From: Candidatus Eiseniibacteriota bacterium
GTDB taxonomy: Bacteria > Eisenbacteria > RBG-16-71-46
Direction: 5' to 3'
Assembly (NCBI GenBank): GCA_963707915.1
Contig: OY970178.1
Coordinates: forward strand, 3,094,103 to 3,158,102
Length of the DNA stretch: 64,000 nucleotides
The notes below the pieces were generated by a model. That model was given only the letters and a program-made list of their open reading frames with translations, searched no databases and was not told the DNA's origin. A program made the position numbers and the translations under genes. Position 1 is the stretch's first letter. Every line of letters begins with the position of its first letter. Below, piece after piece: positions 164 through 56,828 of the stretch.

Positions 164-2905
164 CTACGCCTCGCGCGGCTCCGGCGCTTCCGGGTCGAGG
201 CCGTAGTCGCGGATGGCGGCCGCCACGGCCTCGGGCGCGACCTGCCCCTCGCGCGCCAGGGCGGCGAGCGTGGCCACGACGATGTGCTCGGCGTCCACCT
301 CGAAGTGCCGGCGCAGGGCCTCGCGCGTGTCGCTGCGGCCGAAGCCGTCGGTGCCGAGCGGGGTGAAGGAGCGCGGCACCCAGCGGGCCACCATGTCGGG
401 CACCGACTTCATGAAGTCGCTCGCCGCGATCACCGGCCCCGGCGCGTCGCCGAGCGCGGCGGTCACGTAGGGCACGCGCGGCGTCTCGAGCGGGTGCAGG
501 CGGTTCCAGCGCTCGACCGCGAGCGCCTCGTTGCGCAGTTGCTGGTAGCAGGTCACGCTCCAGACGTCGGCCGCGACGTCGTGGCGCTCCGCGAGCAGCG
601 CCTGCGCCCGCAGGGCCTCGCGCAGGATGACGCCGCTGCCGAAGAGTTGCGCGCGCTTCGTGCCGGCGCCGCCGCGGCGGAACCGGTACAGGCCGCGCAG
701 GATGCCCTCCTCCACGCCCTCGGGCATCGGGGCCATGGGGTAGTCCTCGTTGTAGAGCGTGAGGTAGTAGAAGACGTCCTCGCCCCGGGTGTACATGCGC
801 TCGAGCCCGTCGCGGACGATGACCGTCACCTCGTACGCCCAGGCCGGGTCGTAGGCGAGCAGGTTCGGGATGACCGAGGCGAGCACCAGGCTGTGGCCGT
901 CCTCGTGCTGCAGGCCCTCGCCGTTGAGCGTGGTGCGGCCCGCGGTGGCGCCGAGCAGGAATCCGCGTCCGCGCATGTCCGCGAAGGCCCAGGCGAAGTC
1001 GCCGGTCCGCTGGAAGCCGAACATCGAGTAGAAGATGTAGAAGGGGATCATCGGCTCGCCGTGCGTGGCGTACGACGTGCCCGCCGCGGTGAAGGCGGCC
1101 ATCGAGCCGGCCTCGTCGATGCCCTCCTCGAGCACCTGCCCGTCGGCCTTCTCGACGTAGGAGAGGTAGACCCTCGAGTCCACCGGCTCGTAGCGCTGTC
1201 CGCCCGCGGCGTAGATGCCGACCTCCTTGAACAGCACCTCGAGGCCGAAGGTGCGCGCCTCGTCGGGGATGATGGGCACCACCCGCCGGCCCCAGGCGGG
1301 GTCGTGGATCAGGTTGCGCAGCAGCTTCGCGAAGGCCATGGTGGTCGAGACCGCCTGGTCCCCGCGCGTGCCGGTGAAGAACTCGGCGAACACCGCGTCC
1401 TGCGGCGCCGGCAGCGGCCGGGCGCGCACGATGCGGCGGGGCAGGCAGCCGCCGAGCGCGCGGCAGCGCTCGACCATGTACCGCACCTCGGGGCTGTCCG
1501 GCCCGGGATGGTAGTAGGGCGCGTCCTTGAGCCGGTCGTCGGGGATCGGCAGCTGGAGCCGGTCGCGGAACTTGCGCAGCTCCTCCTCGTTCATCTTCTT
1601 CTGCTGGTGCGCGACGTTGCGCGCCTCGGTGGTGCCGCCCAGCGTCCAGCCCTTGACGGTCTTGGCGAGGATGACCGTGGGCTTGCCCTTGAAGCTCACC
1701 GCCGCGGTGTAGGCCGCGTAGAGCTTGTGGTAGTCGTGTCCGCCACGGCGCAGCTTCGTCAGCTCGTCGTCGCCCAGGTGCTCCACCATCTTGAGCAGCC
1801 GCGGGTCGCGCCCGAAGAACTTCTCGCGGATGTAGGCGCCGTTCTCGACGGAATAGCGCTGCCACTCGCCGTCCACGGTGTCGTTCATCGCCTCGACCAG
1901 GACGCCGTCGTAGTCCTGCGCCAGCAGCGGGTCCCACTCGCGGCCCCAGATGACCTTGATGACGTTCCAGCCGGCCCCGGTGTAGAGCGCCTCGAGCTCC
2001 TGGATGATCTTGCCGTTGCCCCGCACCGGGCCGTCGAGCCGCTGCAGGTTGCAGTTCACGACGAAGGTCAGGTTGTCGAGGCCCTCGCGGCCCGCCAGCG
2101 CCAGCCCGCCGGAGGCCTCCGGCTCGTCCGTCTCGCCGTCGCCGAGGAAGGCCCAGACCCGCTGTTGCGACGTGTCGGCGAAGCCGCGGGCCTGCAGGTA
2201 CCGGTTGAAGTGCGCCTGGTAGACCGCGTTGAGCGGGCCCAGTCCCATCGAGACCGTGGGGAACTCCCAGCAGCCGGGCATGAGCCGCGGGTGCGGGTAC
2301 GAGGACAGCCCGAGCCCGCCGACCTCCTGGCGGAAGTGGTCGAGCTGCTGCTCGCTGATGCGGCCCTGCAGGAAGCCGCGGGCGTAGATGCCGGGCGCGG
2401 CGTGGCCCTGGAAGAAGACCTGGTCGCCGGGCCCGTCGTCCTTGCCGCGGAAGAAGTGGTTGAAGCCCATCTCGTAGAGCGAGGCGCTCGAGGCGTAGGT
2501 CGCGAGGTGCCCGCCCAGGCCGGGGAACAGGTGGTTGGCGCGCAGCACCATGACCACGGCGTTCCAGCGGATGATGCGGCGGATGCGGTGCTCCATCTCC
2601 TCGTCGCCCTGGAAGACGGGCTCCTGCTCGGGGGAGATGGTGTTGATGTAGCGCGACTGCACCAGCCCCGGCAGGCCGATGTGCAGCATGCGCGCCCGCT
2701 TGAGCAGCTTGCGCATCAGGAAGTCGGCGCGCTCGGGTCCGTGCGCCTGGACGACCCCGTCCAGCGCCGCCGTCCACTCGCGGGTCTCCACCGGGTCGGG
2801 ATCCGGCAGCTGCCGCTTGAAGCCGTCCAGCTGGCCGAGCCGGTAGCTTTCGCCCGGCTGGAGCTCGTCGTGCTCGGTCAGCGACCCGTCGTCGGTGATG
2901 CCCAT
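164..2905 (-). CDS. aceE: pyruvate dehydrogenase E1 component, homodimeric type
   Basis: 914-aa product with the AceE-like N-terminus (DPVETREWTAALDGVV...FLMRKLL) and thiamine-diphosphate/transketolase-like motifs throughout. Start set to the internal ATG (MGITDD) at 2903-2905, because the upstream 64 codons of the ORF are Arg-rich junk. Confidence 0.9.
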   Translation of the reverse strand: MGITDDGSLTEHDELQPGESYRLGQLDGFKRQLPDPDPVETREWTAALDGVVQAHGPERADFLMRKLLKRARMLHIGLPGLVQSRYINTISPEQEPVFQGDEEMEHRIRRIIRWNAVVMVLRANHLFPGLGGHLATYASSASLYEMGFNHFFRGKDDGPGDQVFFQGHAAPGIYARGFLQGRISEQQLDHFRQEVGGLGLSSYPHPRLMPGCWEFPTVSMGLGPLNAVYQAHFNRYLQARGFADTSQQRVWAFLGDGETDEPEASGGLALAGREGLDNLTFVVNCNLQRLDGPVRGNGKIIQELEALYTGAGWNVIKVIWGREWDPLLAQDYDGVLVEAMNDTVDGEWQRYSVENGAYIREKFFGRDPRLLKMVEHLGDDELTKLRRGGHDYHKLYAAYTAAVSFKGKPTVILAKTVKGWTLGGTTEARNVAHQQKKMNEEELRKFRDRLQLPIPDDRLKDAPYYHPGPDSPEVRYMVERCRALGGCLPRRIVRARPLPAPQDAVFAEFFTGTRGDQAVSTTMAFAKLLRNLIHDPAWGRRVVPIIPDEARTFGLEVLFKEVGIYAAGGQRYEPVDSRVYLSYVEKADGQVLEEGIDEAGSMAAFTAAGTSYATHGEPMIPFYIFYSMFGFQRTGDFAWAFADMRGRGFLLGATAGRTTLNGEGLQHEDGHSLVLASVIPNLLAYDPAWAYEVTVIVRDGLERMYTRGEDVFYYLTLYNEDYPMAPMPEGVEEGILRGLYRFRRGGAGTKRAQLFGSGVILREALRAQALLAERHDVAADVWSVTCYQQLRNEALAVERWNRLHPLETPRVPYVTAALGDAPGPVIAASDFMKSVPDMVARWVPRSFTPLGTDGFGRSDTREALRRHFEVDAEHIVVATLAALAREGQVAPEAVAAAIRDYGLDPEAPEPREA

Positions 2906-3119
2906 GGAGCTTCGTCCCCTTCGAGTGTGTGCCGCAGTCCCGTCCCCGATTCGATGCGGCCCGCGCCGTCCCGACTCACGCTCCGGCCGCGCCAGCAGGA
3001 TAGCGCAGCCGCCCTCGCCAGGTGAACGGCAGAGCCGCACGGAGGGCCGGTGCTCGAAAGGTGTGGCGCGGGGGCGTCTGCCGGCGCCCCCGCGCATCCC
3101 GCGGCCCCGCCACGCCGGC

Positions 3120-5483
3120 CTAGGACGTCAGCGGCTGGTGCCGGTCGAGGGCCTCGCGCAGCTTCTGTGCGATCTGCTGGATCCGGTAGGGCTTGGCCAC
3201 GAAGCTCATCGCGCCCGCCTCCATCCACGAGGACTGGCTCTCGACCGTGGCGTAGCCGCTCGCGATGACCACCGGCAGGGCCGGCCGCAGCCTCCGCACC
3301 TCGTGCAGGACCCGTTCCCCCGAGATGCCCGGCAGCGTCAGGTCGAGCAGCATCACGTCCACGTGCGGCTCGCCCAGGCGCAGGATCTCCAGCGCCTGCT
3401 CCCCGGTCTCCACCGCCACCACGTCGAACCCGCGCTGCTGCAGGCCCGTGCGCGCCAGCGCCCGCAGGCTCGGCTCGTCGTCCACCACCAGCACGGTCTC
3501 GTGGCCGCGCGCGGTCGCCGCCGCCGGCACCAGCAGCGGCGCCTCGTCGGCCGTGTCCACCGGGAAGACCGCCCGGAACGCGGTCTCGTCCGGGCCCGCC
3601 GCGGTCACCAGCCAGCCCCCGTGGGCCCGCATGATGTCCTCGACGATGGTGAGCGTGAGCCCGGCCCGGTCGGGCGCCGGCTCCACCGCGCGACGCGTCC
3701 GGCGGCCGGGCGTCGTGTTCAGCTCGAGCGTGACGGCGTGGCGCGGCTCGCCCGCGCCGAGCGCCTCCTCCGGGGGGCGCGCCTGCTCGACCAGGCGCGT
3801 CGCCAGCGTGAGCGTGCCGCCCGCGCCGATCCGGTCGCGCACCTCCTGCACGAGGTTCACCAGCACCTGCTGGAGCAGCAGCGAATCGCCCAGCAGCAGC
3901 GGCAGCTCCGGCGCCAGCCGCAGCGTCAGCGAGGCGGACGGGTCGAGGGCGCTGCGCAACACCTCGTAGGCGTCCTCGATCACCCGGTTCAGGTGGAGCG
4001 GCAGCCGCTCGAAGCGCGCACTGCGGCTGAACTCCAGCAGCGCCCGGGTGAGGCGCGATGCCCGCTCGGTGGCGCCGACGATCTGCGCCGCCGCCTCGTG
4101 CCGCGGATCGGGCTCGGGGCTCTGCTCGAGCAGCAGCGTGCCGAAGCCGAGGATGGTGCCGAGCAGGTTGTTGAAGTCGTGCGCGACCCCGCCCGCCAGC
4201 CGGCCCATGCTCTCCATCTTCTGCGCCTGCGTGAGCCGGCGTTGCATCACCCAGCCCGCCGTGATGTCCTCCGCCGTGAGGACGCGTCCCACCACGGCCC
4301 CGCTCGCGTCGTGCAGCGGCCCGGTGTAGGTGCGCAGCACGCGCAGGGGCTCGTGCAGCTCGGCGACGTACTCCTCGGCCTGGTCGCTGGTGAGCCGGGG
4401 GACGGACTCGCCGGCCCCGCCGCCCTGCAGGAGCCGCAGCAGGTCGGGCGTGGTCCGCGCCAGCGGGGTGCCCGGCCGGACCGGCTCGTCGAGCCGCAGC
4501 ATCTCGGCCAGGCGCCGGTTGCACAGGGCCACCTCCGCCCGGCCGCGCCGCAGGCGCGCCACCAGCACGCCGGTGGGGATCGCGTCGAGGATGTGGCGCA
4601 GGTGCGCGCGCGACTCGGCCAGCTCCTGCTGGAGCGCGTGGCGGGCGCTCAGGTCCTCGATGAATCCCTGCGCCCGGTCGGCCCACGTCTGCTCGCCGCG
4701 CACCGGGACCACGTGGTTCACCAGGTGGGGCAGGTCGCGGCGGTCGCGGTGCACCCCGGTGAAGTGGATGTCGAAGGGCAGGCCGGCGGCGACCCCGGCG
4801 CGGAACTCCGCACGCACCCGCTCGCGGTCCCCGGGGTGGGCCAGCTCGTCCCACGCCCCGTGGCGCCGCAGCAGCTCCGCGGGCTGGTGCCCGAAGAGGC
4901 GCTCGACCGCGGGGCTCACCTCGATCAGCCGCTCCTCGGGCAGCGCCATGGTCCAGGCCACGCCCGGCAGCGCCTCGGCGGCCGCGCGCTGCAGGCCGTC
5001 GGCCGCGCGGACGGTGGCGCGCGCGCGCAGCGCGGCGGTGGTGTCGTGCAGGTGCAGGAGCATGCTCCCGTCCGGCAGGCGCAGCGCCTCGACCTGGCAC
5101 TGGAGCGGCTGGCCCTCGAGGTCCGTCAGCGTGACCTCGTCGCGCAGCGGGCCCGCGCCGTCGGCCAGCCGCCGGGGAACGTCCGCGTCGCCGAGCACCC
5201 GGGCCAGCAGCGCGGACTCGAGCACCGAGCGGCCGCGCAGGCGGCCTTCGGGCAGGCGGAGCAGGCGGTCCGCGGCGGCGTTCACCATCCGGACGATGAA
5301 GTCGGGCCCGAACAGGATCATCGGGTCCGCCGTGGCCTCGAAGAACGGCGCGAGCGCGGGGTCGGCGGCGGGGGGGCCGCCGCCGCTCTCGCCGGGGGAC
5401 GGATGGCGCGCGGGCGGGAGCCCGACGATCAGCGGATGCGCGGCGAGGAAGTGCCAGGCGGACCGCACTCCGGTGGATCTCAT
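3120..5483 (-). CDS. hybrid sensor histidine kinase with PAS domains, HisKA/HATPase_c core and C-terminal receiver domain
   Basis: PAS-like repeats, an H-box (GGVAHDFNNLLGTILGF), a HATPase region and a receiver domain (VLVVDDEPSLR...DVMLLDLTLPGISG...). N-terminal start is uncertain. Confidence 0.8.
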   Translation of the reverse strand: MRSTGVRSAWHFLAAHPLIVGLPPARHPSPGESGGGPPAADPALAPFFEATADPMILFGPDFIVRMVNAAADRLLRLPEGRLRGRSVLESALLARVLGDADVPRRLADGAGPLRDEVTLTDLEGQPLQCQVEALRLPDGSMLLHLHDTTAALRARATVRAADGLQRAAAEALPGVAWTMALPEERLIEVSPAVERLFGHQPAELLRRHGAWDELAHPGDRERVRAEFRAGVAAGLPFDIHFTGVHRDRRDLPHLVNHVVPVRGEQTWADRAQGFIEDLSARHALQQELAESRAHLRHILDAIPTGVLVARLRRGRAEVALCNRRLAEMLRLDEPVRPGTPLARTTPDLLRLLQGGGAGESVPRLTSDQAEEYVAELHEPLRVLRTYTGPLHDASGAVVGRVLTAEDITAGWVMQRRLTQAQKMESMGRLAGGVAHDFNNLLGTILGFGTLLLEQSPEPDPRHEAAAQIVGATERASRLTRALLEFSRSARFERLPLHLNRVIEDAYEVLRSALDPSASLTLRLAPELPLLLGDSLLLQQVLVNLVQEVRDRIGAGGTLTLATRLVEQARPPEEALGAGEPRHAVTLELNTTPGRRTRRAVEPAPDRAGLTLTIVEDIMRAHGGWLVTAAGPDETAFRAVFPVDTADEAPLLVPAAATARGHETVLVVDDEPSLRALARTGLQQRGFDVVAVETGEQALEILRLGEPHVDVMLLDLTLPGISGERVLHEVRRLRPALPVVIASGYATVESQSSWMEAGAMSFVAKPYRIQQIAQKLREALDRHQPLTS

Positions 5484-38448: not shown

Positions 38449-38698
38449 GGGGCGTCCCTGCCTCGATTCCGATGCCATCGGGTGCGGCCCTCCGGAGCCC
38501 TGACGAGGTGCGATCTCACGAGGTGCTGGGCCCGCCGATCCCGGTGCGGAGCGAGACAATGGTAGCACAGCCGGGGGGCGCCGGAGCCGTCGCGCGACGG
38601 ACGCGGCGGGCGAGTGGGGCGGCGAGGCGCGGGGCCGGGGCATTCGACCCAGCGGGGGCTCCGCGCCGGGCGGTCGGGCGCGGCCCGTCCGGGGGAGG

Positions 38699-38809
38699 CT
38701 AGCGGAAGAACGTGAAGCGCAGGATCAGCAGCAGGAAGAGCAGCAGCAGGTAGAACTGCAGGAAGTACAGGGCGAACCGCTTGCCCTTGGTCATCTTCAC
38801 CGGGGGCAT
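38699..38809 (-). CDS. 36-aa extremely hydrophobic micropeptide (MPPVKMTKGKRFALYFLQFYLLLLFLLLILRFTFFR)
   Basis: Starts 8 nt after the stop of the MgtE-N/CBS gene. Local AT-rich codons. A single predicted TM helix. Confidence 0.3.
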   Translation of the reverse strand: MPPVKMTKGKRFALYFLQFYLLLLFLLLILRFTFFR

Positions 38810-38816
38810 GGCGGCC

Positions 38817-40106
38817 TCACGTCCTCACCTTGGTCACGACACCCTTCATGACCTCGTTGTAGCGCACCACCCCGAGCAGGTGGTCGTGGTGGTCGACGAC
38901 CGGCAGCAGCCGGTAGTGGTACTTCACGAACAACTCCTGCAGGTCGTCCCGCAGGTCCTCGGCCTCGGCGCTCACCACCGGGGAGATCATGATGTCGCCC
39001 ATCAGGGTGTCGTCCTGCGCCAGCACCAGGTCGCGCAGGTCCACCACGCCCTCGAGCACGCGCTCCTCGCCCTCGACCACGTAGACGTACGAGATGCCAT
39101 CGGCCTCGCGGCCGGAGCGGCGGATGTCGCCCAGCACCTCGCCCACGCGGCTCTCCTTGCCGACCGCGAGGAAGTCCGGGGTCATCAGCGAATGGGCGGT
39201 GACCTCGCGCTCCGAGAGGATGGCGTGGAGCCGCCGGGCGGTCTCGGCGGGCAGCATCTTCGTGAGCTCGGTCACGTGGGCATGGGGCAGCACGGTGAAG
39301 AGGTCGGCGAGCTGGGCGACGTTCATCTCCGCGAGCACGGACCGTGCCCGCTCCTCGCGCATGTCGGCGATGATCTGGCGCTGGGCGCGCGGCTCGGCCT
39401 CGAGCAGGGCCTCGGCCGCGGTCTCGGAGTCGAGCGCCGAGAACAGCGCCTCCTGCTCCTTGCCGGAGAGCTCCTCGAGCGCGTCGGCCAGGTCCTCGGG
39501 CGGCAGGTCCACGAGCTGTTTGCGCGTCACCGAGAGCGACACCTTGTCGGTGCTGACGGCGTCCTCGAGGTTGAGCGGCTGGACGTACTTCCAGGTGATC
39601 AGGTTCTCCTTGAAGAGCTGGAGCCATCCCAGGTGCCAGCGGCGCAGGAAGCCGTTGAACGAGGTGTCCACGTGCACCACGGCCAGCCGGCCGCGGCTCT
39701 CCAGCAATTGCACGTCGTTCACGGCCTCGACGCGGCGGCCGTCGATGTCGAGGATGGTGCGTCCGACCAGGTGGTTCTCGAGCAGCATCCAGCCCGGCTG
39801 GTCCACGAACGGGGGATAGGCCTCGCCCGCCTCGGGCGGCTGCACGAAGATGGCGTCGTCCTCGATGCGCAGCACGCGCTTCCACGGCACGAACTCGGTG
39901 GGCTTGCCCCAGCCGTGCTCGACGACGATGCCGACCGCCTCCGGGTAGAGCTCGGCGAGCGAGAAGACCAGGTCGTCCACCTTGCCGATGCGGTCGTGGA
40001 TCTTGCCCTTGCAGACCGGGCGGTGGATCAGCTGCGAGAAATAGAGGAACCGGAACTCTCCCGGCAGCTCGAGGTTCTTCGTGCTCTTCTGGGTGGTCGC
40101 GGTCAT
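38817..40106 (-). CDS. stand-alone MgtE-N plus CBS-pair regulatory-domain protein (no membrane domain), with an N-terminal PRC-barrel-like region
   Basis: MgtE intracellular N-domain and tandem CBS domains, but the protein ends without TM helices. Start ATG preceded by GGAGGTGA. Confidence 0.65.
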   Translation of the reverse strand: MTATTQKSTKNLELPGEFRFLYFSQLIHRPVCKGKIHDRIGKVDDLVFSLAELYPEAVGIVVEHGWGKPTEFVPWKRVLRIEDDAIFVQPPEAGEAYPPFVDQPGWMLLENHLVGRTILDIDGRRVEAVNDVQLLESRGRLAVVHVDTSFNGFLRRWHLGWLQLFKENLITWKYVQPLNLEDAVSTDKVSLSVTRKQLVDLPPEDLADALEELSGKEQEALFSALDSETAAEALLEAEPRAQRQIIADMREERARSVLAEMNVAQLADLFTVLPHAHVTELTKMLPAETARRLHAILSEREVTAHSLMTPDFLAVGKESRVGEVLGDIRRSGREADGISYVYVVEGEERVLEGVVDLRDLVLAQDDTLMGDIMISPVVSAEAEDLRDDLQELFVKYHYRLLPVVDHHDHLLGVVRYNEVMKGVVTKVRT

Positions 40107-40108
40107 GG

Positions 40109-41438
40109 TCACCTCCGGCTCATCCCTGCGGGAAGAGCCCCGGGAAGAGGGTGCTGAGCGCGAACAGCGTCGAGACGATGACGATCGCCGATCACGATGC
40201 TCCAGTTCACGATGTTCTGCCAGCGCGTGTTGACGTACTTCCCCATGAAGCCCTCGTCGTTGAGGATCAGCAGCAGGAAGACCAGGGCGACCGGCAGCAG
40301 GGTGACCGCCACGACCTGCACGTACATGGTGATGGTCACGAGCGGGGCGCCGGGGATGAGCACCACGGCCCCGCTGGTGAGCAGCATGCCCAGGTAGGCC
40401 ATGTAGAACCAGGGCGCGTCGCGCACGCTCTTGTTGAGCGAGTGGGCCCAGCCCAGCACCTCGCCCATCGCCCAGGAGGAGGACAGCGAGATGCACAGCG
40501 CGCCGAGGAAGCCGGCGTCGAACAGGCCGATGGCGAAGAGCTGCTGCGCCAGCCGGCCCTGCCCGTGGGGCAGCAGGGGCACCAGCGCGTCGGCGGTCTG
40601 CCGGGCGTCCTCGATCGCGATCGGCGGGCTGGTGGTAGTGAAGAGCGGCCCCGGTGACGATGATGATGAACGCCGCCACGATGCAGGTGAGCAGCGCGCC
40701 CGCCAGCGTGTCCCACTTGCCGAAGCGCACGTCGTGGATGTCGAGGCCCTTGTCCACGACCGAGCTCTGCTGGAAGAAGATCTGCCACGGCGTGATCGTG
40801 GTGCCGATGTTCGCCAGCAGGATGAAGATCAGGCCCGGGGTGAATCCGCCCGGGATCTCGGGCTTCACGAAGCCGTCGAGCACCTTGTTCCAGCCGGGTG
40901 CGCCCGGGGCATTCATGGCCCACAGGGCCGCCGGGATGTAGACCAGGTTGAAGATGCAGAAGAAGAGCGTCAGCTTCTCGAAGGTCCAGTAGCGCCCGGT
41001 CACCACCACCGTGAAGAGGATGGCGGTGACCCCCAGGAACGTGATCCAGGGCGGCACGCCGAAGATGCTCGCCGCCGCGATCATGCCGATGTACTCGGTC
41101 ACCAGCGTGAGCCAGTTCACGATCGCCAGGTCGAACAGCGAGAACCATCCCCAGACCGGCCCGAAGCCCTCGAAGATGGCCTCGGCGTGCCCGCGCTTGG
41201 TGACCGCCCCCAGCCGCACGGTCATCTCCTGGATGTAGTAGGCGATCGGGACCAGCAGGAGGAAGATCCACAGCAGGCTGAAGCCGTATCGGGATCCGGT
41301 CACGGCGTAGGTGGAGATGCCGCCGGCGTCGTTGTCGGCCACCATGGTGATGATGCCCGGGCCCAGCACGGCGGCGAAGATCGTGATCTGCCGCCGGAAA
41401 CGCGAGAGCTTGTGGATGCTCTTGCTGAGCCAGTACAC
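40109..41438 (-). pseudogene. mntH: Nramp/MntH divalent-metal transporter interrupted by a +1 frameshift near 40615-40630
   Basis: N-terminal two-thirds (GPGIITMVADNDAGGISTYAVTGSRYGFSLLW...FIIIVTGAALHYHQP) are in one frame. The C-terminal third (IAIEDARQTADALVPLLPHGQGRLAQQLFAIGLFDAGFLGA...) is in the +1 frame. No single ORF spans the gene. This could be a sequencing error. Confidence 0.6.
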
Positions 41439-41669
41439 GTGCACCTCGAGGTGGGTCCGGCAGGGGGGCGGAGGCCTGGGCAGCCTGGCGCTGGACGATT
41501 CGGCGCAGAGTAGGCCGCGGCTCCGCGGTCGGCAAGCGGAAATGGGCCGGATGCGCGCCGGGACGCGACGCGCGACGCGAATTGGAAACGGCTTGACACT
41601 CCGCGACGGAGGCCGATACGGTGGAAGTCGTCGCTTCCTTCGTCGGCTCGCCATGGAGTCCTCCCCGCC

Positions 41670-42143
41670 ATGCTGCTCTCCGAGCTCCTCAATCCCGACG
41701 CGATCTGCCTGCGCCTGAAGGGCCGCGCCAAGCGCGAGGTGCTGGTCGAGCTCGTGGACCTGCTCGAGGCCAGCCACGGCTTCGCGAGCCAGGGCGAGAT
41801 CCTCGACCGCGTGCTGCGGCGCGAGGCCATGATGTCCACGGGGCTCTTCCCCGGCGCGGCCATCCCGCACGGCAAGGCCCGCTCGGTGAACCGCATGGCG
41901 GCGGCCTGCGGGCTCTCGCCCGAGGGCGTGGATTTCGAGTCGGAGGACGGCCAGCCGACCCACCTGTTCGTGCTGCTGGTCTCGCCCGAGAACGCCACCA
42001 CGCCGCACGTGCGGCTGCTCGCGAACATCTCGCGCCTGCTCAAGGACGACGCCGTGCGCAAGGGCCTGCTCGAGGCGCGCAGCCCGGAGGAGTTCCTGGC
42101 GGTGATCCGGGGCGGCGAGAGCCCGTCCATCCCGCAGGGCTGA
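41670..42143 (+). CDS. ptsN: PTS EIIA(Ntr/fructose-type) protein, PtsN-like
   Basis: PTS_EIIA_2 fold with the conserved His region (PGAAIPHGK). Confidence 0.7.
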   Translation: MLLSELLNPDAICLRLKGRAKREVLVELVDLLEASHGFASQGEILDRVLRREAMMSTGLFPGAAIPHGKARSVNRMAAACGLSPEGVDFESEDGQPTHLFVLLVSPENATTPHVRLLANISRLLKDDAVRKGLLEARSPEEFLAVIRGGESPSIPQG

Positions 42144-42168
42144 CACCCGGCCGGCGCCACCGGCCGCG

Positions 42169-42834
42169 ATGGGGGACACGGTGCACTTCCTCGACGCCTG
42201 GGCGGCGCTGCCGCTCCCCGAGCTCCTGCGCTTCGCCGTCCCGGCCGCGCTGCTGCTGGTCGCGGTGCTGGCGCCCGGCCGCGTGCCGGCGCGGCTCACC
42301 GCGCTGGGGCTGGCGGCCGCGATCCCGTTCCTGCCCGGGTCGGGTGGTTCGGCGTGGGTCACGGCGGGCTGGGTGCTCCTCTGGCTGGCGATCGCCTGGC
42401 GGGCGGGGCGGCCCTCGTGGCGGGCGGGGCGCTCCGGCGCGCGGCTGGGGGGGATCGAGTCCGGCACCGTGGGGCTGCTGCTCGGGGCGTCGTCGCTCGC
42501 CTTGCTGCTCGCCGGCGTGGCCCGGCTCGACCTCGACGCCGCCGCGACGCGGCAGTGCTCCTTCGGCGTGCTGCTGGTCAGCCTGGGCTTCCTGCACCTC
42601 ATGCTGCGCCGCCACGCCGTGCGGGCCGCCACCGCCTTCGCCGCGATGGGGCTCGGCCTGCAGCTCCTGCAGGCCGCGGTGCGGGTGGTGGCGACGGCCG
42701 GCAGCGCGCCCCCCGAGGGACTGCCGCTGGCCGCCAGCGCGCTGGCGGTGGCGCTGACGGTGCGCGTCGGCGCGGCGCGCCTGGCGACGGCCGGCTCTCC
42801 GTGGGTGAGCGAAGCCCACGACCTGCATGACTGA
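42169..42834 (+). CDS. hypothetical polytopic membrane protein
   Basis: Hydrophobic, Ala/Leu-rich. Translationally coupled to the next gene. Confidence 0.45.
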   Translation: MGDTVHFLDAWAALPLPELLRFAVPAALLLVAVLAPGRVPARLTALGLAAAIPFLPGSGGSAWVTAGWVLLWLAIAWRAGRPSWRAGRSGARLGGIESGTVGLLLGASSLALLLAGVARLDLDAAATRQCSFGVLLVSLGFLHLMLRRHAVRAATAFAAMGLGLQLLQAAVRVVATAGSAPPEGLPLAASALAVALTVRVGAARLATAGSPWVSEAHDLHD

Positions 42835-42837
42835 GCC

Positions 42838-44172
42838 ATGCGCCTCCTGAGCCACCTGTTCCCCGGTCCCCGCACCGCGGGCGGCCTGCTGTGCACGGCG
42901 GGCCTCGTGCTGGCCGTCCTGCCCGCGCGCTTCGCGCCGGCGCTCGGGATCGAGCTGCTCGCGGGCGGATTCTGGTGGTGGGCCCGCGCCAGTGACGAGC
43001 CCGCCTTCCAGGTCCCGCGCTGGCGCTGGCTGCGCCGGCCCGCGACCGCGCTGTGGCTGGCGGCCGCCATCGAGATGGCGCTGCCCGGGGCGGCCGGCGG
43101 TTTCGTGGTGCCGCCCGCCACGCTCGCGTTCTGGTCGCGGGTCGAGGCCATCGCGATCGTCTGGGCCGCGCTCGAGTTGCTGGCCGCGCTCCCGCTGGCG
43201 CGGCCGTTCTCGGACCTGCCGGGCCCGCTGGTCGGCACCGGCGCGTGGTTGCCGGCCCTGCTCCCCGCGGCCGGGTTCCTGCTGCTCTGGCGGTTGGCGC
43301 CGCGCTGGCTCGACGTGGACGAGGTGCGTGACGCGGCCGCCGCGCTGCTGTTGCTCACCGCGGGGCTGGCGGCGCTGCGGGCCTACGGGCGCCGGCGCTG
43401 GACCGCCGGGCTGCGCTGGCTGGTCGTGTTCGACGGCGCACTGGCCGGCGTGCTGCTGGCGAGCGGCGCGGTGCCGCCGTGGATCGCGGGCGTGCTGTGG
43501 GCCGGCGCCTGCGGCACCCACGCCCACCTGCTGGCCGGCGAGCTCGGCGGAGCGAGCGCACGTCGCGGCCCGGTGATGGCGATGTCGTGGCGCATGACCT
43601 CGTGGATCTCGACCGCCGCGCTGGGCTGGCCGCTGCTCGCCGCCGCGGGCGGGCTGAGCGCGCGCCGCGCCGCGCTCGTGCTGGTCTGCGGGGGCGTCCC
43701 GGTCGCGCTCGCCTCGTGGGTGAACGTGGCCCGCCTGGTCGAGGCCCCCGAGCGCCGCTCGCTCGCCCGGCCGGTGTCGTGGTTCACCCCCACCCGCGTC
43801 GCCCCGGTCGTGCTGCTGGGCGGCGTGCCGCTGGCGCTGGTGAGTGCGTGGTGGGTGGGCTTCGCGCCGCGGCCGCTGTACGCGCTGCTCGCGCTGCTGC
43901 CCGCGGCACTGGGCGGGGCGCTCGGCCTGCTCGCCCTGCACGGCGCGGCGAGCGCCCGCGAGGCGCGCGCCGACCGGGTCGCCCAGCACGCCGCGCGCCG
44001 CCTGTTCCGCCTGGTGATCGGCCTCGAGCGCGCGCTGGTCGCGGGGGCGGGGCGCCTGGTGCGGGTGCTCGCCACCCCGCTGCGCGACCTGCACACCGGC
44101 GACGCCCAGGAGTACGTGCTGTTCCTGGTCGGCGTGGCCGTGCTCGCCATCCTGCTGCCGCTGATGCGATGA
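42838..44172 (+). CDS. hypothetical polytopic membrane protein
   Basis: About 12 predicted helices. ATGA overlap with the next gene. Confidence 0.45.
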   Translation: MRLLSHLFPGPRTAGGLLCTAGLVLAVLPARFAPALGIELLAGGFWWWARASDEPAFQVPRWRWLRRPATALWLAAAIEMALPGAAGGFVVPPATLAFWSRVEAIAIVWAALELLAALPLARPFSDLPGPLVGTGAWLPALLPAAGFLLLWRLAPRWLDVDEVRDAAAALLLLTAGLAALRAYGRRRWTAGLRWLVVFDGALAGVLLASGAVPPWIAGVLWAGACGTHAHLLAGELGGASARRGPVMAMSWRMTSWISTAALGWPLLAAAGGLSARRAALVLVCGGVPVALASWVNVARLVEAPERRSLARPVSWFTPTRVAPVVLLGGVPLALVSAWWVGFAPRPLYALLALLPAALGGALGLLALHGAASAREARADRVAQHAARRLFRLVIGLERALVAGAGRLVRVLATPLRDLHTGDAQEYVLFLVGVAVLAILLPLMR

Positions 44173-50822: not shown

Positions 50823-51244
50823 GAGCCCCCCACGTCGATGTCGGTGTACGACATACCGCCGGGGAGCCGGGCGTACCCGCCTCCCCGGCCGAAGCGGACC
50901 TCGACCGGGGCCGGCCGCGATGCGCGTGCCGCTTCCGTCGCTGCCGCGTCGTCGTCGTTCCAGTCTTCCGCGAGCACACCCCATTGTTGGCGGCAGGGTT
51001 GACGTTGTCAACCCGGAGTGTCCCCATTCCTCGGACCACCGGTCATGACAGGGGCTTCGGCGTGATGGGGTGGACCTCGGGCTTCATCGCCGCGCGGGGA
51101 ACAGGTATCTTCGAAGCGCGGCGCCGCGACCGGGAAGACGCAGCTTCCGGCGCGCGCCGCCCGCATCTGGAACCGACGGGCGTCGCGCGGGATGATCACC
51201 CGCGTCCCCCGGGGGCATCTGCATCATCTCGTCTGGAGGATGGT

Positions 51245-52770
51245 ATGCGAGCTCGGGTCGTCGCCCGGCTTCTCGCCCTGGCGCTGGTGGTGTCGTCGCC
51301 GTGCCCGGCGCAGGCGGGCACGGTGCGCATCGAGAGCGGGGGGATCGATAGGCGTCCCGAGCGGCCTGCCCGGCGTCCTCGTCTTCAGGGGGGTGCCCTA
51401 TGCGCGGCCGCCGGTCGGGGCGCTCCGGTGGCAGCCGCCGCAGCCGCCGGCGGCGTGGAGCGGTGTGCGCAGGGCCGACGGCGTCGCTCCGTGCTGCCAG
51501 CAGGTGCCGTGGTCGGCGCCGCCCTGGACGGCGGAGTTCGTCACGCAGGAGCGGACGAGTGAGGACTGCCTCGACCTCAACCTCTGGACCGCGCAAGCCT
51601 CAGGCCGCACGAAGCGCCCGGTGCTCGTGTGGCTGCACGGCGGCGCGCTGACCGGAGGATCCGGCGCGGTGGCCGTGTACGACGGCGCCCAGCTCGCCCG
51701 TCGCGGCCTCGTGGTGGTGACCGTCAACTACCGGTTGGGCGCACTCGGCTTCCTCGCGCATCCCGGGCTGAGCGCGGAGTCCCCGCGGCACGTCTCCGGG
51801 AACTACGGGCTGCTCGATTGCATCGCCGCGCTGCAGTGGGTCCGGCGGAACATCGCGGCCTTCGGTGGCGACCCCGGGCGAGTGACGATCGCCGGGCAGT
51901 CTGCGGGCGCCGACCTGGTCAGCGCGCTGATGCGCTCGCCCCTGGCGACAGGGCTCTTCCACCGCGCCATCCTGATGAGCGGGGGCTCGTCCGACGGATA
52001 CCCTGCCGCTCGCCGAGGCCGAGCGGCAGGGCGCGGCGTGGGCGAGGACCTTCCAGGACAGCTCGCTCGCGGCGCTGCGCGCGCTGCCCGCCGCCGGAAC
52101 CATGGTCGGCGGGCGCTTCGGGCTCGTGGCGGACGGCTGGTGCCTTCCCGCGAACGGATCGACCGCTCCGGTGAGCGACGTGCCGATCCTCTTTGGCCTG
52201 ACCGCGGACGAAGGCAGCAGTGACCCCACGTACGGCAAGGTCACGGCCGCGGAGTACGCGGCGTTCGCGCGCTCGCACCTGGACACGCTGGCGGACGAGG
52301 CGCTGCAGCTCTATCCGTTCTCCAACGACGAGCAGGCCGGGCTCGCGCAGAAGCAGAGCATGCGCGACCTCGGGCTCTTCCAGACCCTGCGCTGGGCGCG
52401 CGCGCGCGCCGCTCGGGACCACGCGCCACTGTACGCGTACTATTTCACGCGCGGCATCCCCTGGCCCGAGCATCCGGAGTTCGGCGCGTTCCACAGCTCC
52501 GACGTGCCCTATGCATTCGCGAACCTCCGGCTGCTGCAACGTCCCTGGCAGGAGGCCGATCGCCGCCTGTCCGAGACGCTCGCGGCGTACTGGGTCCGCT
52601 TCGCCCGGACGGGAGATCCGAATGGGCCGGGATTGCCGGAGTGGCCGGCGTTCGATCCCGGCGAGCCGCGGCTGCTGGAGCTGGGCGCGACCGTGGCCCC
52701 GCGCCCGATCCTCGAACCCCGGCGCGTGGAGTTCTACGAGAAGTGCCTGGCGCTTCCCCCGCGCGAGTAG
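51245..52770 (+). pseudogene. carboxylesterase type B (para-nitrobenzyl-esterase-like) with two frameshifts at G-runs (about 51340-51346 and 51981-51995)
   Basis: Signal peptide in frame A, FRGVPYARPPVGALRW...EDCLDLNLW...GQSAGA core in frame B, and the C-terminal half (TLPLAEAERQG...EFYEKCL) in frame C. Both shifts sit next to GGGGG(G) homopolymers. Confidence 0.65.
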
Positions 52771-52841: not shown

Positions 52842-55817
52842 TCACTCCAGCAACGTCAACTTGCGCGTTCCGACCACACGGTCACCGAGCCGCATGCGCA
52901 CGAAGTAGAGCCCCGCCGCGAGTCTCCGGCCGCTGGCGTCCGCCGGTCGCCAGGACGCCGACCATTCGCCGGCACTGCGCGCGCCCGGCTCCACCGACGC
53001 CACCCGACGGCCAGCCATGTCGAGGACGTCGAACGCCACCTCGCCCTCGGCCCGCAACGCGTAGTCGATGCGCAGCGCGCCGCGGCCCGGGTTGGGCGAG
53101 ATGCCGCCTAACGCGTCGCGGTCGGGACGTGGCGTGCCTTCCACGGTGACGGTTCCGCTCCGCAGTCCGACCTCGAAGATGCCTGCGCCCCCGTCGCGCA
53201 CCACGACGACGCCGTACCAGCCGGTGACCGGCGCCGTGATCACCACGGACTGCTGACTCTCCACCAGCGCGCTCGCGCGACCCGTCCACAAGGGGCCGCC
53301 GGTGGGCGCGAAGACCAGCACCTTCGCATCGAGCCCGGGGCTGTGCGAGAACGTGAGGGTGTAGGTCTGGCCGGCGATCATGGGCGCATCCCAGCTCTCC
53401 ACCAGGAAGTCGCTCGTTGTGGTGCGCACGTTGTCGGGCGCGTCGAGCGTCAGCTCCTGATGGCCTGGGAAGTACTCCACCAGTCCCGCATCGGCGCCGG
53501 TCCAGCGGATCGCGGAAGCGTAGTAGGTGGCGAACGAGTTGAAGTTGAAGTCGCCGACCACGACGTCCGCCTCGGGGTACATGGTCGAGTTCGCCAGCAT
53601 CCCGCTCAGGCACGTGCCGATCGCTCCACCTGTCGGCGACGAGTAGGCGTAGAGACTCCAGTCGCTGCTGCTCGTCAGTCCGGCCGCGGCGATCGCCGTC
53701 CAGTAGGGCAACGCCGGCGCGAACGAGACGAACGCCCTTGGCTCGGTCGGCACGATGAACGCCGGCCCCGGCGTGAGCGACACGATCGGCGGGCAGGTGC
53801 GCACCCTGATCGTGTAGGCGTCCGCCGCTCCGTTCTCGTTGACGACAACGACTCCATAGAATCCGCTGCTCGGCGCCGTGTACGTGTGGGCGCCCGCGCC
53901 GCTCTCGAACTCGGCCATCTGGCGGCCTGCCCAGTACTCGTAGCCGGTCTCGTTGCGGAACAGCATGAGCGTGAGGGAGGCGGCCGGACCGCTCGAGAGT
54001 TCGAACTCGTAGGCCTGCCCGGCCTCCAGGTACACGTCCCAGCAACCCACGACGTCGTCGGGTCCGGTGGTGCGCTGCGTGACGTTGTTGTCATTGGCGA
54101 TGATCAGGTTCTCGCCGGAATCCCACTGCACGGCTGTCGACGACACGCTTTCGGCGCGGGGCTGCGCGGCGTTCAGATAGTAGGTGCCGGGCGTGTTGTA
54201 GTTGAAGTCGCCGACGACGACGGGTTGCCGCCCTGAGGGCACGCCATAGGACGTGGCAAAGGGCAGCGTGGTGCAGCTTGGCCACAGCGAACTGAGGTTG
54301 TCGCCGTTGAGGTTCAGCACCCATTCCGGGCTTTCGCCGCGCAATGCGGCGGCGGTCCAGTATCGGGCGGTCTGCGCGATCGAGAAGTACGCCGTCATCA
54401 CCATGCCGGTCGAGGCGGTAACGCCGGGCGAGAGCGCGGTCGGGAACGAGCAGTCGCCGAAGGTAACGCTGTAGTCGCCGGCAACCGCCGCATCGTTGAC
54501 GACCGCCACGCCGTACCATCCGCTCACCGGCGCGGTGTAGGTGGTCGGCCCCGCCCCGCCCCCTGGCGAGCTCAGGACGGCCGCGGACCTACCGGCAAAG
54601 TACGCGCCGCCGCCGCTGTTGGCGAACAACAGCAACGTCCGACCGATGGGGAGTGAGAGGATGAAGCGGTACGTGTGGCCGGCGTGCAAGTAGACGTCGT
54701 AGAAATCGGCGAGATCGCTGCCCGCCATGGACTCGAAATGCGGGAGGCTGTTGGTTTCGAGGATCCCCTGCGTACCGGTGAACTCGACTTCGCCCGCGGC
54801 CGCGCCGCTGAACAGGTGCGGGTAGACGAAGTACCAGCCCGCGGGTGAGAAGCTGAAGTCGCCCACCGTGAGGTCCACGCTGCCGGGGCCGAACCCCGAG
54901 GTGGCGAACAGCCCGTCGAAGCACGTCGGCGGACTGCCGCCGCTCGGCATGTCGTAGAGGCCGAGGTCCCAGTCTGCGGCCGAGGACCGGACCGCACATC
55001 CCATCCAGAACGGGTCCCTCGCCTCGAAGGCCAGGTTCCCGTTCGGCAGAGCGACGACAACCGGCGTCTGCGCCGTGAGGGCCGAGGGGATCGGGCAGGT
55101 CGAAGCCGTGACGCCCAGCTTGTACGAGAGGGCGGTGCCGGCGTCGTTGGTGAGCACGAGGCCGTAGTAACCGGTCGTTGTCGGCGTGAAGGTCGTTGTG
55201 CCGGTGACGTCGAAGTGGGCTGCGCTGCGGCCGGCCCAGTAAGTGCCGCCCGTGATGTTGGCGAACAACATCAGGTGGGCCCCCGACCAGTTCGTGGGGA
55301 AGAAGTCGAACGTGTAGGTCGTGCCCGTGGACATGTAGACGTCCCAGACGCGGATCAGGTCGGATGTGGCCATCGATCCGGAGATCGCGGAGCCGTTGGG
55401 TACGATGACGTCGGGGCCGTCGTCCCACTGCACGGTCGCATTCCCTCCGGAGTATCGGGACACCGAGGGGTAGTAGGTGCCCGGCGCGTTGTGGTTGAAA
55501 TCGCCGACGACGAAGTCCAGCACGCCGACTCCGGCGGTCGATGACGCCAGCAGGCCGGTGGGCGTGCAGGAAGGCTCTGGCGTGGTGCCCGAGTAGAGGA
55601 AGAGGTCCCAGTCCGCGCCCGGCTGCGGTCGCACCGCAACGGCAGTCCAGAAGGCCGAGGACTGCGCGAACTGACAGAGTGCCGGCGTGCTCGATACCGG
55701 CACCGCAGTGCCCGAGGTCAGCACTTGGGTCGGACATGCCGCACGCGCCGGGCCGGCGAGCGCGAGCGCAAGTACGACGGCGCTCGTCGTGTGGTGGAGA
55801 GCGATTCGGAGAGTCAT
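52842..55817 (-). CDS. large secreted protein of four tandem ~220-aa repeats with a C-terminal FlgD-Ig/T9SS-like sorting domain
   Basis: Signal peptide. Repeated blocks each containing VVGDFNxNxPGTYY and WD/YW motifs. C-terminus ...GLYFVRMRLGDRVVGTRKLTLLE. Confidence 0.7.
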   Translation of the reverse strand: MTLRIALHHTTSAVVLALALAGPARAACPTQVLTSGTAVPVSSTPALCQFAQSSAFWTAVAVRPQPGADWDLFLYSGTTPEPSCTPTGLLASSTAGVGVLDFVVGDFNHNAPGTYYPSVSRYSGGNATVQWDDGPDVIVPNGSAISGSMATSDLIRVWDVYMSTGTTYTFDFFPTNWSGAHLMLFANITGGTYWAGRSAAHFDVTGTTTFTPTTTGYYGLVLTNDAGTALSYKLGVTASTCPIPSALTAQTPVVVALPNGNLAFEARDPFWMGCAVRSSAADWDLGLYDMPSGGSPPTCFDGLFATSGFGPGSVDLTVGDFSFSPAGWYFVYPHLFSGAAAGEVEFTGTQGILETNSLPHFESMAGSDLADFYDVYLHAGHTYRFILSLPIGRTLLLFANSGGGAYFAGRSAAVLSSPGGGAGPTTYTAPVSGWYGVAVVNDAAVAGDYSVTFGDCSFPTALSPGVTASTGMVMTAYFSIAQTARYWTAAALRGESPEWVLNLNGDNLSSLWPSCTTLPFATSYGVPSGRQPVVVGDFNYNTPGTYYLNAAQPRAESVSSTAVQWDSGENLIIANDNNVTQRTTGPDDVVGCWDVYLEAGQAYEFELSSGPAASLTLMLFRNETGYEYWAGRQMAEFESGAGAHTYTAPSSGFYGVVVVNENGAADAYTIRVRTCPPIVSLTPGPAFIVPTEPRAFVSFAPALPYWTAIAAAGLTSSSDWSLYAYSSPTGGAIGTCLSGMLANSTMYPEADVVVGDFNFNSFATYYASAIRWTGADAGLVEYFPGHQELTLDAPDNVRTTTSDFLVESWDAPMIAGQTYTLTFSHSPGLDAKVLVFAPTGGPLWTGRASALVESQQSVVITAPVTGWYGVVVVRDGGAGIFEVGLRSGTVTVEGTPRPDRDALGGISPNPGRGALRIDYALRAEGEVAFDVLDMAGRRVASVEPGARSAGEWSASWRPADASGRRLAAGLYFVRMRLGDRVVGTRKLTLLE

Positions 55818-56434
55818 CGCGAGCCTCCCTTCGCGATGCGACGAAGCTCCGCCTGCTTCTCGAGCTGCGCGGGCGCCAGCGGCGTGGGCGCGGGGTTGAG
55901 GATCGCGCCGGCCGCCAGCCGGTTCTCCGATGCAGACGACGGCGCACTGCGCGCGTGCGCCCGCTTCTCGGTGATCGCCGCGGCCCGCTCCGCCCCCAGC
56001 TTCGGATCCAGCGGCCGTGACGTAACGAGCGGGCCGGGCCTGGTGCGTACGTCACCCGCGGGCGCAGCGCCCGCGGGCAGCCCGAGCATCGTGGCGCGAT
56101 TGCGCTGCTGCATCCTCAGCAGCGCGCCAGACTGCTTCTCGGCCTGCGAATTCTCCGTCGGCCGGTCGGGGCCCGGCGGGCGCGAGGTCGCGACCGGCGG
56201 GGCCTTCGCATCGCCGAGCGCGAACGCCGCTGCCGGCGCCGGAATCGCCGCGTGGATCGACTCCAGCTTGATGCGTTGAGCGGCCGTGGGCGTGGGCGAT
56301 AGCGAAGGCGGCAGTTCGGTGCGCACCTCGGCGGGCTTGCCGGTGGCGTCCGGCGAGGAGTCACCGGCGAGCGCCGGATCGGGTGAGGCGCACAACGCTA
56401 CCGCGCTGGCGAGAACCAGGAGAGCGCATTTCAT
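55814..56434 (-). CDS. secreted Pro/Ala-rich hypothetical protein
   Basis: Start MKCALLVLASAVALCASPDPALA with GGAGGAG upstream. Stop overlaps the start of the repeat protein. Confidence 0.5.
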   Translation of the reverse strand: MKCALLVLASAVALCASPDPALAGDSSPDATGKPAEVRTELPPSLSPTPTAAQRIKLESIHAAIPAPAAAFALGDAKAPPVATSRPPGPDRPTENSQAEKQSGALLRMQQRNRATMLGLPAGAAPAGDVRTRPGPLVTSRPLDPKLGAERAAAITEKRAHARSAPSSASENRLAAGAILNPAPTPLAPAQLEKQAELRRIAKGGSR

Positions 56435-56828
56435 GGGAGACTCCTCCGCGTCGAGGTGAAGAATCGGCATGGGGCTACCGCTCAAACGACCCGAGGCCGC
56501 GCGAATCACACGGGAAGTGCGGGCGCGAGGGATCCCCGAGGCGGGGCGGACGGGCCGTGCCGGGGGCCACCGGGAACGAGCTTGCGTCGGGCGAAGGGCC
56601 CGGCTTTACTTGCGCTCACGACGAGGGGTCTGCGTCCGCAAATGACCCCGAGCGGGGCCGGGACGTTCCGCCGGAGCCCGCGCCGGCGAACTCCCGAGCC
56701 GCGGCTGGAGGGTGGGTGTCGAATCCCGAAGGTCAACTCCACTGGGTCGGCGGGGCGCCCGCGGGCGCCGCGCCCCGTTGATCGACTTTTCCGTGGCCGC
56801 CACCCGGGCGGGGCCGGTCCGGCTGGGG

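Follow-up and report, generated by a model that had tools for sequence, protein, structure and literature searches.

Introduction

Transporters of the NRMT clade have a signature of their own: helix 1 has DxxG instead of DPGN, and helix 6 has TxxA/T instead of AxxM (PMC8806188). The member from Eggerthella lenta, EleNRMT (PDB 7QIA), carries Mg2+ and Mn2+ without proton coupling, and served to show that the enlarged DxxG/TxxT site of such carriers accepts hydrated Mg2+; no partner protein was included in that work (Ramanadane et al. 2022, PMC8806188). Most NrmT genes adjoin a gene for a homologue of the MgtE cytoplasmic domain, for which feedback regulation or a chaperone role was suggested as a speculation (Shin et al. 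2014, PLoS Genet, PMC4072509). In MgtE itself, the N and CBS domains provide control by binding Mg2+ and ATP (PMC5882242, PMC5529423). The pairing of transporter and sensor, together with the feedback idea, has been in print since 2014. Here we describe a locus of this kind in a stretch of 64,000 nucleotides from a Candidatus Eiseniibacteriota bacterium (contig OY970178.1, positions 3,094,103 to 3,158,102), referred to below as the window. The three genes of the locus form an operon that belongs to a widespread bacterial family and encodes a predicted NRMT-type transporter (nrmT), a soluble MgtE-type protein (here called the sensor) and a hydrophobic micropeptide.

Results

Layout and conservation of the three-gene cassette

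Six-frame translation of positions 38690-41560 placed three co-directional genes on the minus strand, which together fill positions 38699 to 41438 exactly (Table 1). An earlier note on this stretch, made from the DNA letters alone, had proposed an Nramp gene, an MgtE-type sensor gene and a gene for a 36-residue peptide, and all three were borne out, running from 41438 to 38699 on the minus strand. The distances between them were corrected. The micropeptide open reading frame (ORF) begins 7 nucleotides past the sensor gene stop, instead of the 8 first given, and the spacer behind nrmT measures 13 nucleotides instead of 2. The shorter value was obtained because a second frameshift had been missed and the wrong 3' frame followed, to a TGA at 40111-40109. 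From their length, the 13- and 7-nucleotide spacers suggest that the three genes are co-translated. No riboswitch or other Rfam RNA matched in the whole window in a gathering scan, nor in positions 41350-41750 in a scan at E ≤ 10, and no sigma-70-like promoter was found in the nrmT leader region.

Conservation of the cassette was scanned in one genome per species, giving 80 loci from many phyla, among them Acidobacteriota, Planctomycetota, Verrucomicrobiota, Desulfobacterota, NC10, Bacteroidota and Gemmatimonadota. Of the 77 loci with sufficient sequence upstream of the sensor gene, 76 have an NRMT gene directly before it in the same orientation; in 73 of these the match is single and full-length. 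A profile hidden Markov model of the micropeptide matched each of 84 loci exactly once, again in the same orientation. Because synteny is near universal for both partners (76/77 for the Nramp, 84/84 for the peptide), gene order gives good support to a functional link that joins the transporter and the peptide to the soluble MgtE-type module. The earlier note had named a search for Nramp genes followed by MgtE_N-CBS genes in other genomes as a check on the pairing, and the same 76 of 77 loci keep it.

The cassette extends to plasmids. A distant version occupies positions 2012-4724 of the IncHI1B conjugative plasmid pPSV of Citrobacter freundii (L084, NZ_LR881935), in the order NRMT, small ORF, CBS protein. 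The small ORF, which is absent from the plasmid's (incomplete) gene table, weakly matches the peptide profile (E 5e-4), and the cassette adjoins a heavy-metal P-type ATPase and an ArsR/SmtB regulator. In a single example from Alicyclobacillus, also on a plasmid, the gene order is reversed and no peptide was detected; plasmid NRMT/sensor pairs therefore occur in both orders.

An Rfam scan of 32 related loci found M-box riboswitches of about 120 bits directly upstream of NRMT in two metagenome-assembled genomes (MAGs) of NC10/Methylomirabilota (L026, 2341-2517; L027, 2213-2389), whose carriers are approximately 80% identical to the transporter of the window. None was found in the other 30 loci or in the window. 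The presence of M-boxes upstream of close relatives lends indirect support to Mg2+ as a probable substrate of this NRMT.

The transporter belongs by sequence to the NRMT clade

With both frameshifts in nrmT repaired, the 438-residue transporter matched the Pfam Nramp family (PF01566) in one stretch over positions 1-356/357, with 249.6 bits; its homologues are intact and measure 437-438 residues. The best match among solved structures was EleNRMT (7qia, 218.6 bits), compared to 63.6 bits for the best canonical Nramp. Scores against models of canonical MntH fell well below the cut-offs, at 106.3 versus 430 for NCBIfam MntH NF001923 and 52.5 versus 272.5 for TIGR01197. In the alignment with EleNRMT, the site residues D55, G58, T224 and Q379 are identical, and A227 is replaced by Thr, the TxxT variant of the signature. 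The DPGN and A..MPH-type motifs of canonical MntH are replaced by DAGG and TTIT(PW). DAGG, GTTITPW and the Gln are all present in the window, and DAGG, GTT[IV][TA]PW and Gln are kept in 76 of 76 syntenic homologues. Judged by these motifs and scores, the transporter is an NRMT-clade (magnesium-type) Nramp and not a manganese/iron MntH. The identification as MntH in the earlier note is not supported, given the sub-threshold MntH scores, the replaced motifs and the best structural match.

The sensor combines PRC barrels with an MgtE N domain and a CBS pair

The sensor has no transmembrane domain. Of the 450 positions of the mgtE model TIGR00400, it matches those from 20 to 249-253; with its end at residue 429, it lacks both the plug helix and the C-terminal five-helix pore (PF01769) of MgtE. 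Compared to structures in the PDB, it matched MgtE cytosolic domains with an E value of 4e-26 (2yvy). An initial AlphaFold model from 23 sequences gave a predicted local distance difference test score (pLDDT) below 50 for residues 1-196, and a model built with 120 homologues (pLDDT 78.5) was used instead. In this model, two beta-barrels (residues ∼19-88 and 106-177) are followed by a disordered linker, the N domain, which is helical, and the CBS pair, with pLDDT of about 60-89 in the beta-rich domains of the PRC region. Foldseek searches with the model returned MgtE cytosolic domains as the top matches (2yvy, 8gpv and 5x9g; 1.7e-18). The earlier note had described the protein as an MgtE N domain and CBS pair only, without a pore. 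Both domains and the missing pore stand, but residues 1-190 form PRC barrels in addition. These N-terminal 190 residues contain many of the invariant positions of the family, for which more than 2271 homologues were found at 62-94% identity.

We mapped the ligand-binding residues of MgtE through the sensor/PDB alignment onto the conservation of the family. The ATP pocket of the MgtE CBS pair is formed by Y170, R187, D188, N203 and F227 (PMC5529423). Four of these have kept equivalents in the sensor, namely Y340, R358 (invariant), D359 and Y398, in the order Y170, R187, D188 and F227; only N203 is lost, to I374. Since most of the ATP-binding residues are kept, the CBS pair probably reads nucleotide status, and perhaps cation status as well. 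The cytosolic Mg2+ sites Mg4, Mg5 and Mg7 of MgtE involve D91/D247, D226/D250 and E59, respectively (PMC5882242). E59 (Mg7) is kept as E232, and D247 as E418. The equivalents of D91, D226 and D250 are lost (A264, H397, which is a nearly invariant His, and K421), which makes Mg2+ sensing in the manner of MgtE doubtful. In the window, His397 (38916-38918) is followed by the His-rich stretch VVDHHDHLLG (DHHDH at 38882-38894). The nearly invariant His at the D226 position and this stretch may be a hint that the ligand is a transition metal and not Mg2+.

The micropeptide is a conserved, translated gene

The micropeptide gene usually begins 0-130 nucleotides after the sensor gene and stands between carrier and sensor in two Bacteroidetes loci. 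Across 82 distinct DNA versions, Y20, L27 and F32 are invariant in the peptide, and divergence at the three codon positions is 0.405, 0.222 and 0.573; by this substitution pattern the gene is translated. At least 339 peptide clusters were found in a large protein collection, all unnamed or labeled "hypothetical" and without a Pfam domain. A profile search of 1.84 billion representatives returned 328 clusters, all of 32-150 residues. None of these 328 fuses the peptide to the sensor or the carrier, and the motif is N-terminal in nearly all of the 150 best matches listed. The peptide matched nothing in Pfam or NCBIfam, and no mention of it was found in the searchable literature. Its exact sequence is recorded on a 1.5-kb contig and, according to the database index, on another of more than 1 Mb; neither the exact sensor protein nor the exact product of the neighboring PTS-EIIA-like gene has a record. 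We conclude that it seems to be undescribed and to belong to no existing family.

An origin of the peptide as a remnant of the first transmembrane helix or the plug helix of MgtE was considered and rejected: when the peptide was joined to the sensor, the TIGR00400 match did not reach beyond profile position 253, and the peptides alone matched nothing relevant.

Two frameshifts interrupt nrmT in the assembly

As found in the window, the reading frame of nrmT is interrupted by two +1 insertions, with changes of the Nramp frame near 40640 and again near 40190 in six-frame translation. The first insertion lies 2 nucleotides past a tandem CGATCGCGATCG. In DNA alignments it faces a 1-nucleotide gap in the relatives L004, L001 and L006, and removing the base gives back HYHQPPIAIEDARQ. 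The second is an extra base relative to L004, L001 and L005, the removal of which gives back NWSIVIGIVIVSTLFALSTLFPGLFPQG followed by the stop. The +1 shift that the earlier note had placed at 40615-40630 agrees with the extra base at about 40625, which is extra relative to every homologue. The note had counted this as a single frameshift, and the one at about 40186 must be added. Its remark that no homopolymer is involved is only roughly right, in that each insertion can also be read as extending a short G/C run by one base.

The closest relative is L004, a MAG of Candidatus Eisenbacteria that is 89.7% identical to the window at the nucleotide level over 7 kb. Across six genes aligned between it and the window, the two nrmT indels are the only net frame-breaking coding indels. 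The ratio of nonsynonymous to synonymous substitution rates (dN/dS) was 0.14-0.20 downstream of the first break, 0.14-0.17 upstream of it and 0.135-0.22 in the intact sensor gene. A Viterbi pass with a codon model, run on all 64 kb, recovered both Nramp shifts and one further same-strand switch without stop or start signals. A third +1 insertion was found in a gene for a type-B carboxylesterase (Pfam COesterase; 51192..52770, plus strand), in which the frame of the N-terminal half differs from that of the C-terminal half, with the shift near 51981-51985. With one G less in the G5 run at 51981-51985, the gene reads as a single 509-residue protein scoring 323.7 bits. In total, the window contains three +1 single-base insertions in 64 kb, each of which can be read as a G/C run one base longer. 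In a nanopore-derived MAG (L083), the same Nramp gene is in three pieces.

We attribute the frame breaks in nrmT, with moderate confidence, to indels of sequencing or assembly, because the out-of-frame part shows no relaxed selection and a third indel lies in an unrelated gene. What weighs against this attribution is clustering: two of the three indels of the window fall within one 1.3-kb gene, which has a chance of roughly 5-7% under uniform errors and fits a pseudogene somewhat better. It is conceivable, at lower probability, that nrmT was recently inactivated in this lineage by the first indel, followed by a neutral second, and that the genes for sensor and peptide have so far stayed intact. 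Such a history would account for two independent indels in nrmT and none in the five neighbors aligned to L004, and for a frame that stays open after the first shift down to 38817 (ORF 38817..43358); the Smithella locus L037 illustrates that sensor and peptide can persist without an adjacent Nramp. However, dN/dS is not raised in the out-of-frame part, 73 of 76 homologues are intact, the third +1 indel disrupts an unrelated conserved gene, and all three indels are alike in type and direction, as expected of systematic overcalls. The earlier note had offered a decaying locus as its alternative. The data permit it but we do not favor it, given dN/dS, the intact partner genes and the indel elsewhere. 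Programmed +1 ribosomal frameshifting that yields the full-length transporter would fit the shared +1 direction of both shifts, but none of the homologues needs one at these positions (73 are intact), the two sites have no known +1 shift-prone motif in common, and a like indel breaks an unrelated gene. We regard its probability as negligible, and rejected it as a recoding device on the grounds of the unshifted homologues.

Two other split Nramp genes proved not to be frameshifted. The split detected by tblastn in L071, at the loop of the first frameshift, is a run of 10 N at 1095-1104 in an Acidobacteria MAG (a scaffold gap or masked sequence), and that in L032 is an in-frame insertion.

The open frame after the first shift (41438..38817, minus strand) belongs to a 1513-residue ORF (38817..43358) that is probably a by-product of 72% G+C. 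If the shifts were real, translation from the nrmT start to the sensor stop would produce an 873-residue chimera of the Nramp N-terminal half, an out-of-frame stretch and the whole sensor. Both Nramp insertions (40612-40625 and 40182-40187) lie 5 nucleotides or less from a CGATCG, as does 1.2% of the window, and the second insertion itself creates a CGATCG. This proximity may reflect motif-linked (e.g., methylation-linked) basecalling error; the pattern is post hoc, and the esterase indel is without it. With at least three gene-splitting single-base insertions in the window, apparent pseudogenes in this assembly are not to be trusted without reads.

Table 1. Coordinates of the cassette, its protein domains and the frameshifts in the window.
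Feature	Position	Strand	Description
nrmT	40120..41438	minus	GTG start at 41438; true stop TGA at 40122-40120; two single-base insertions; repaired product of 438 residues
Spacer between nrmT and sensor gene	40107..40119	minus	13 nucleotides; contains the Shine-Dalgarno sequence GGAGGTGA, from direct sequence reading
Sensor gene	38817..40106	minus	Intact; ATG at 40106; cytosolic product of 429 residues
Micropeptide gene	38699..38809	minus	Hydrophobic single-helix membrane peptide of 36 residues, MPPVKMTKGKRFALYFLQFYLLLLFLLLILRFTFFR
5' leader and divergent intergenic region	41439..41669	minus	Between nrmT and a PTS-EIIA-like gene (41670..42143, plus strand)
Frameshift 1	∼40625	minus	One extra base (+1), context CAG CCC G CCG ATC; exact base within GGCGGGC ambiguous
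Frameshift 2	∼40186	minus	One extra base (+1) inside CGATCGCCGATC, context ATC GGC G ATC
PRC barrel 1	40049..39831	minus	Sensor residues 20-92; Pfam PF05239, E 1e-10, above cut-off
PRC-like barrel 2	39791..39576	minus	Sensor residues ∼106-177; weak PRC match, E 0.008 (below cut-off), plus beta-rich AlphaFold domains
MgtE N domain	39506..39213	minus	Sensor residues 201-298; PF03448, E 4e-18
CBS pair	39206..38841	minus	Sensor residues 301-422; PF00571 twice

Elsewhere in the window, an ORF of 231 residues (55814..56509, minus strand) has a signal-peptide-like start and a low-complexity body rich in Pro, Ala and Ser. It occupies most of a 0.9-kb stretch that the codon model treats as noncoding, between two large divergent genes.

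Discussion

The locus resembles the NrmT pairs of Shin et al. in that an Nramp with a magnesium-type site adjoins a gene for a soluble homologue of the MgtE N and CBS domains; some of the members described there lie behind an M-box. It differs from these pairs in several respects. The order here is nrmT followed by the sensor gene, opposite to that of the A. capsulatum pair; the sensor has ∼190 extra N-terminal residues (the PRC barrels), and a gene for a 36-residue peptide follows it; no riboswitch precedes nrmT, which is frameshifted. With EleNRMT, the transporter shares the four identical site residues and the His-to-Trp replacement on helix 6b; unlike EleNRMT, it has Thr at A227 and its gene is broken by two insertions. 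The sensor corresponds to MgtE of Thermus thermophilus (2YVX/2YVY/5X9G) in its N domain and CBS pair, by both sequence and fold, with the ATP residues largely kept and E59 kept as E232. In contrast to MgtE, it has no plug helix or pore, has lost D91, D226 and D250, begins with two PRC barrels and is encoded apart from a membrane domain. No papers on PRC barrels with MgtE, or on Nramp with MgtE, CBS and PRC, were found in the searchable literature.

Small membrane proteins that modulate cation transporters are exemplified by MgtS, MgtR, KdpF and MntS, all narrow enterobacterial examples. The micropeptide is like these in being a single-helix peptide of ∼30-40 residues encoded with or near a cation transporter, a likeness for which no sequence relationship is claimed, and unlike them in its conservation across many phyla. 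In the H subunit of the photosynthetic reaction center, a PRC barrel is kept on a membrane complex by one transmembrane helix. As an architectural analogy, the cassette would likewise combine a PRC barrel at the cytoplasmic face with a single transmembrane helix, except that barrel and helix are separate gene products here.

An uncoupled Mg2+ carrier would need a brake, and the sensor could supply this control. From the MgtE ligand residues that are kept and lost, we infer that the sensor is a regulator in the cytosol that responds to nucleotides, and possibly to cations, and controls the NRMT in trans. Docked at the membrane, it would gate the carrier from the cytoplasmic face, closing or opening it in trans as the same domains do in cis in MgtE, with the very conserved PRC barrels and the 36-residue peptide as the likely docking parts. 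The earlier note had likewise proposed the peptide as a possible membrane tether, which we keep as a hypothesis; no fusion between peptide and partner among the clusters supports it. We infer, rather than show, that sensor and peptide bind the carrier, which ligand is sensed, in which direction regulation works and that the frameshifts are artefacts. Taken together, an operon of an NRMT, a sensor acting in trans and a peptide, with artefactual frameshifts, is the explanation we favor, and we hold it with fair though incomplete confidence. A stronger version, proposed tentatively, is that the NRMT is an obligate three-part machine in which the peptide, as a membrane subunit, recruits the PRC barrels to the carrier in the manner of the H-subunit helix and the CBS pair gates the otherwise uncoupled Mg2+/Mn2+ carrier in response to ATP or a cation. 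In such a machine, the nearly invariant His in place of D226 may mean that the ligand is not Mg2+.

Several observations weigh against regulation of the carrier by the sensor. In the only co-expression test in print, made with A. capsulatum NrmT and its MgtE-like partner, which have a different gene order, Mg2+ rescue was unchanged, and that carrier behaved mainly as a Mn2+ importer (PMC4072509). The loss of the Mg2+-bridging acids points the same way, as does L037, a Smithella sp. MAG in which sensor and peptide (4001-5400) lack an Nramp, both in the 4 kb upstream and in the rest of the 9.3-kb locus, the only exception among the 77. These findings would be accommodated if the soluble protein were not a gate of the carrier at all but a metal chaperone or buffer, or a nucleotide-responsive adaptor for some other target, with the peptide as an unrelated subunit that stabilizes the carrier. 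The chaperone alternative comes from Shin et al. themselves, in whose hands co-expression had no effect (PMC4072509), and the acidic ligands of Mg4 and Mg5 are not conserved, a nearly invariant His standing for D226. We nevertheless consider a role other than gating unlikely, as the tight spacing and co-occurrence with NRMT are near universal across phyla and the CBS pairs of MgtE, CorB/CNNM and CorC regulate the transporter itself (PMC5529423, PMC8242095). Far less probable is the reading of the earlier note, in which a canonical MntH importing Mn2+/Fe2+ is regulated in trans by a Mg2+ sensor. In its favor, an Nramp domain is present, EleNRMT takes Mn2+ as well as Mg2+ (PMC8806188), and a defect in Mn2+ transport was rescued by the relative from A. 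capsulatum (PMC4072509). Against it stand DAGG and TTITPW in place of the DPGN and MPH-type motifs, an MntH score of 106 versus a cut-off of 430, the Mg2+ transporter EleNRMT as the closest structure and the M-boxes of close relatives. What survives of that reading is the conserved pairing of an MgtE-type sensor with the transporter; the Mn/Fe identity does not, and the idea of regulation was already that of Shin et al. in 2014.

The favored operon of NRMT, trans-acting sensor and peptide makes this locus an ordinary, probably mis-assembled, member of a known system that has an undescribed and conserved third subunit. If the three-part machine is real, the peptide is the missing component and could explain why co-expression of two genes had no effect in 2014. 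The cassette tells experimenters which three genes to co-express, and the always-present peptide, together with the double PRC barrel that is the most conserved part of the sensor, offers a concrete three-component model for how an uncoupled Mg2+ carrier may be kept in check.

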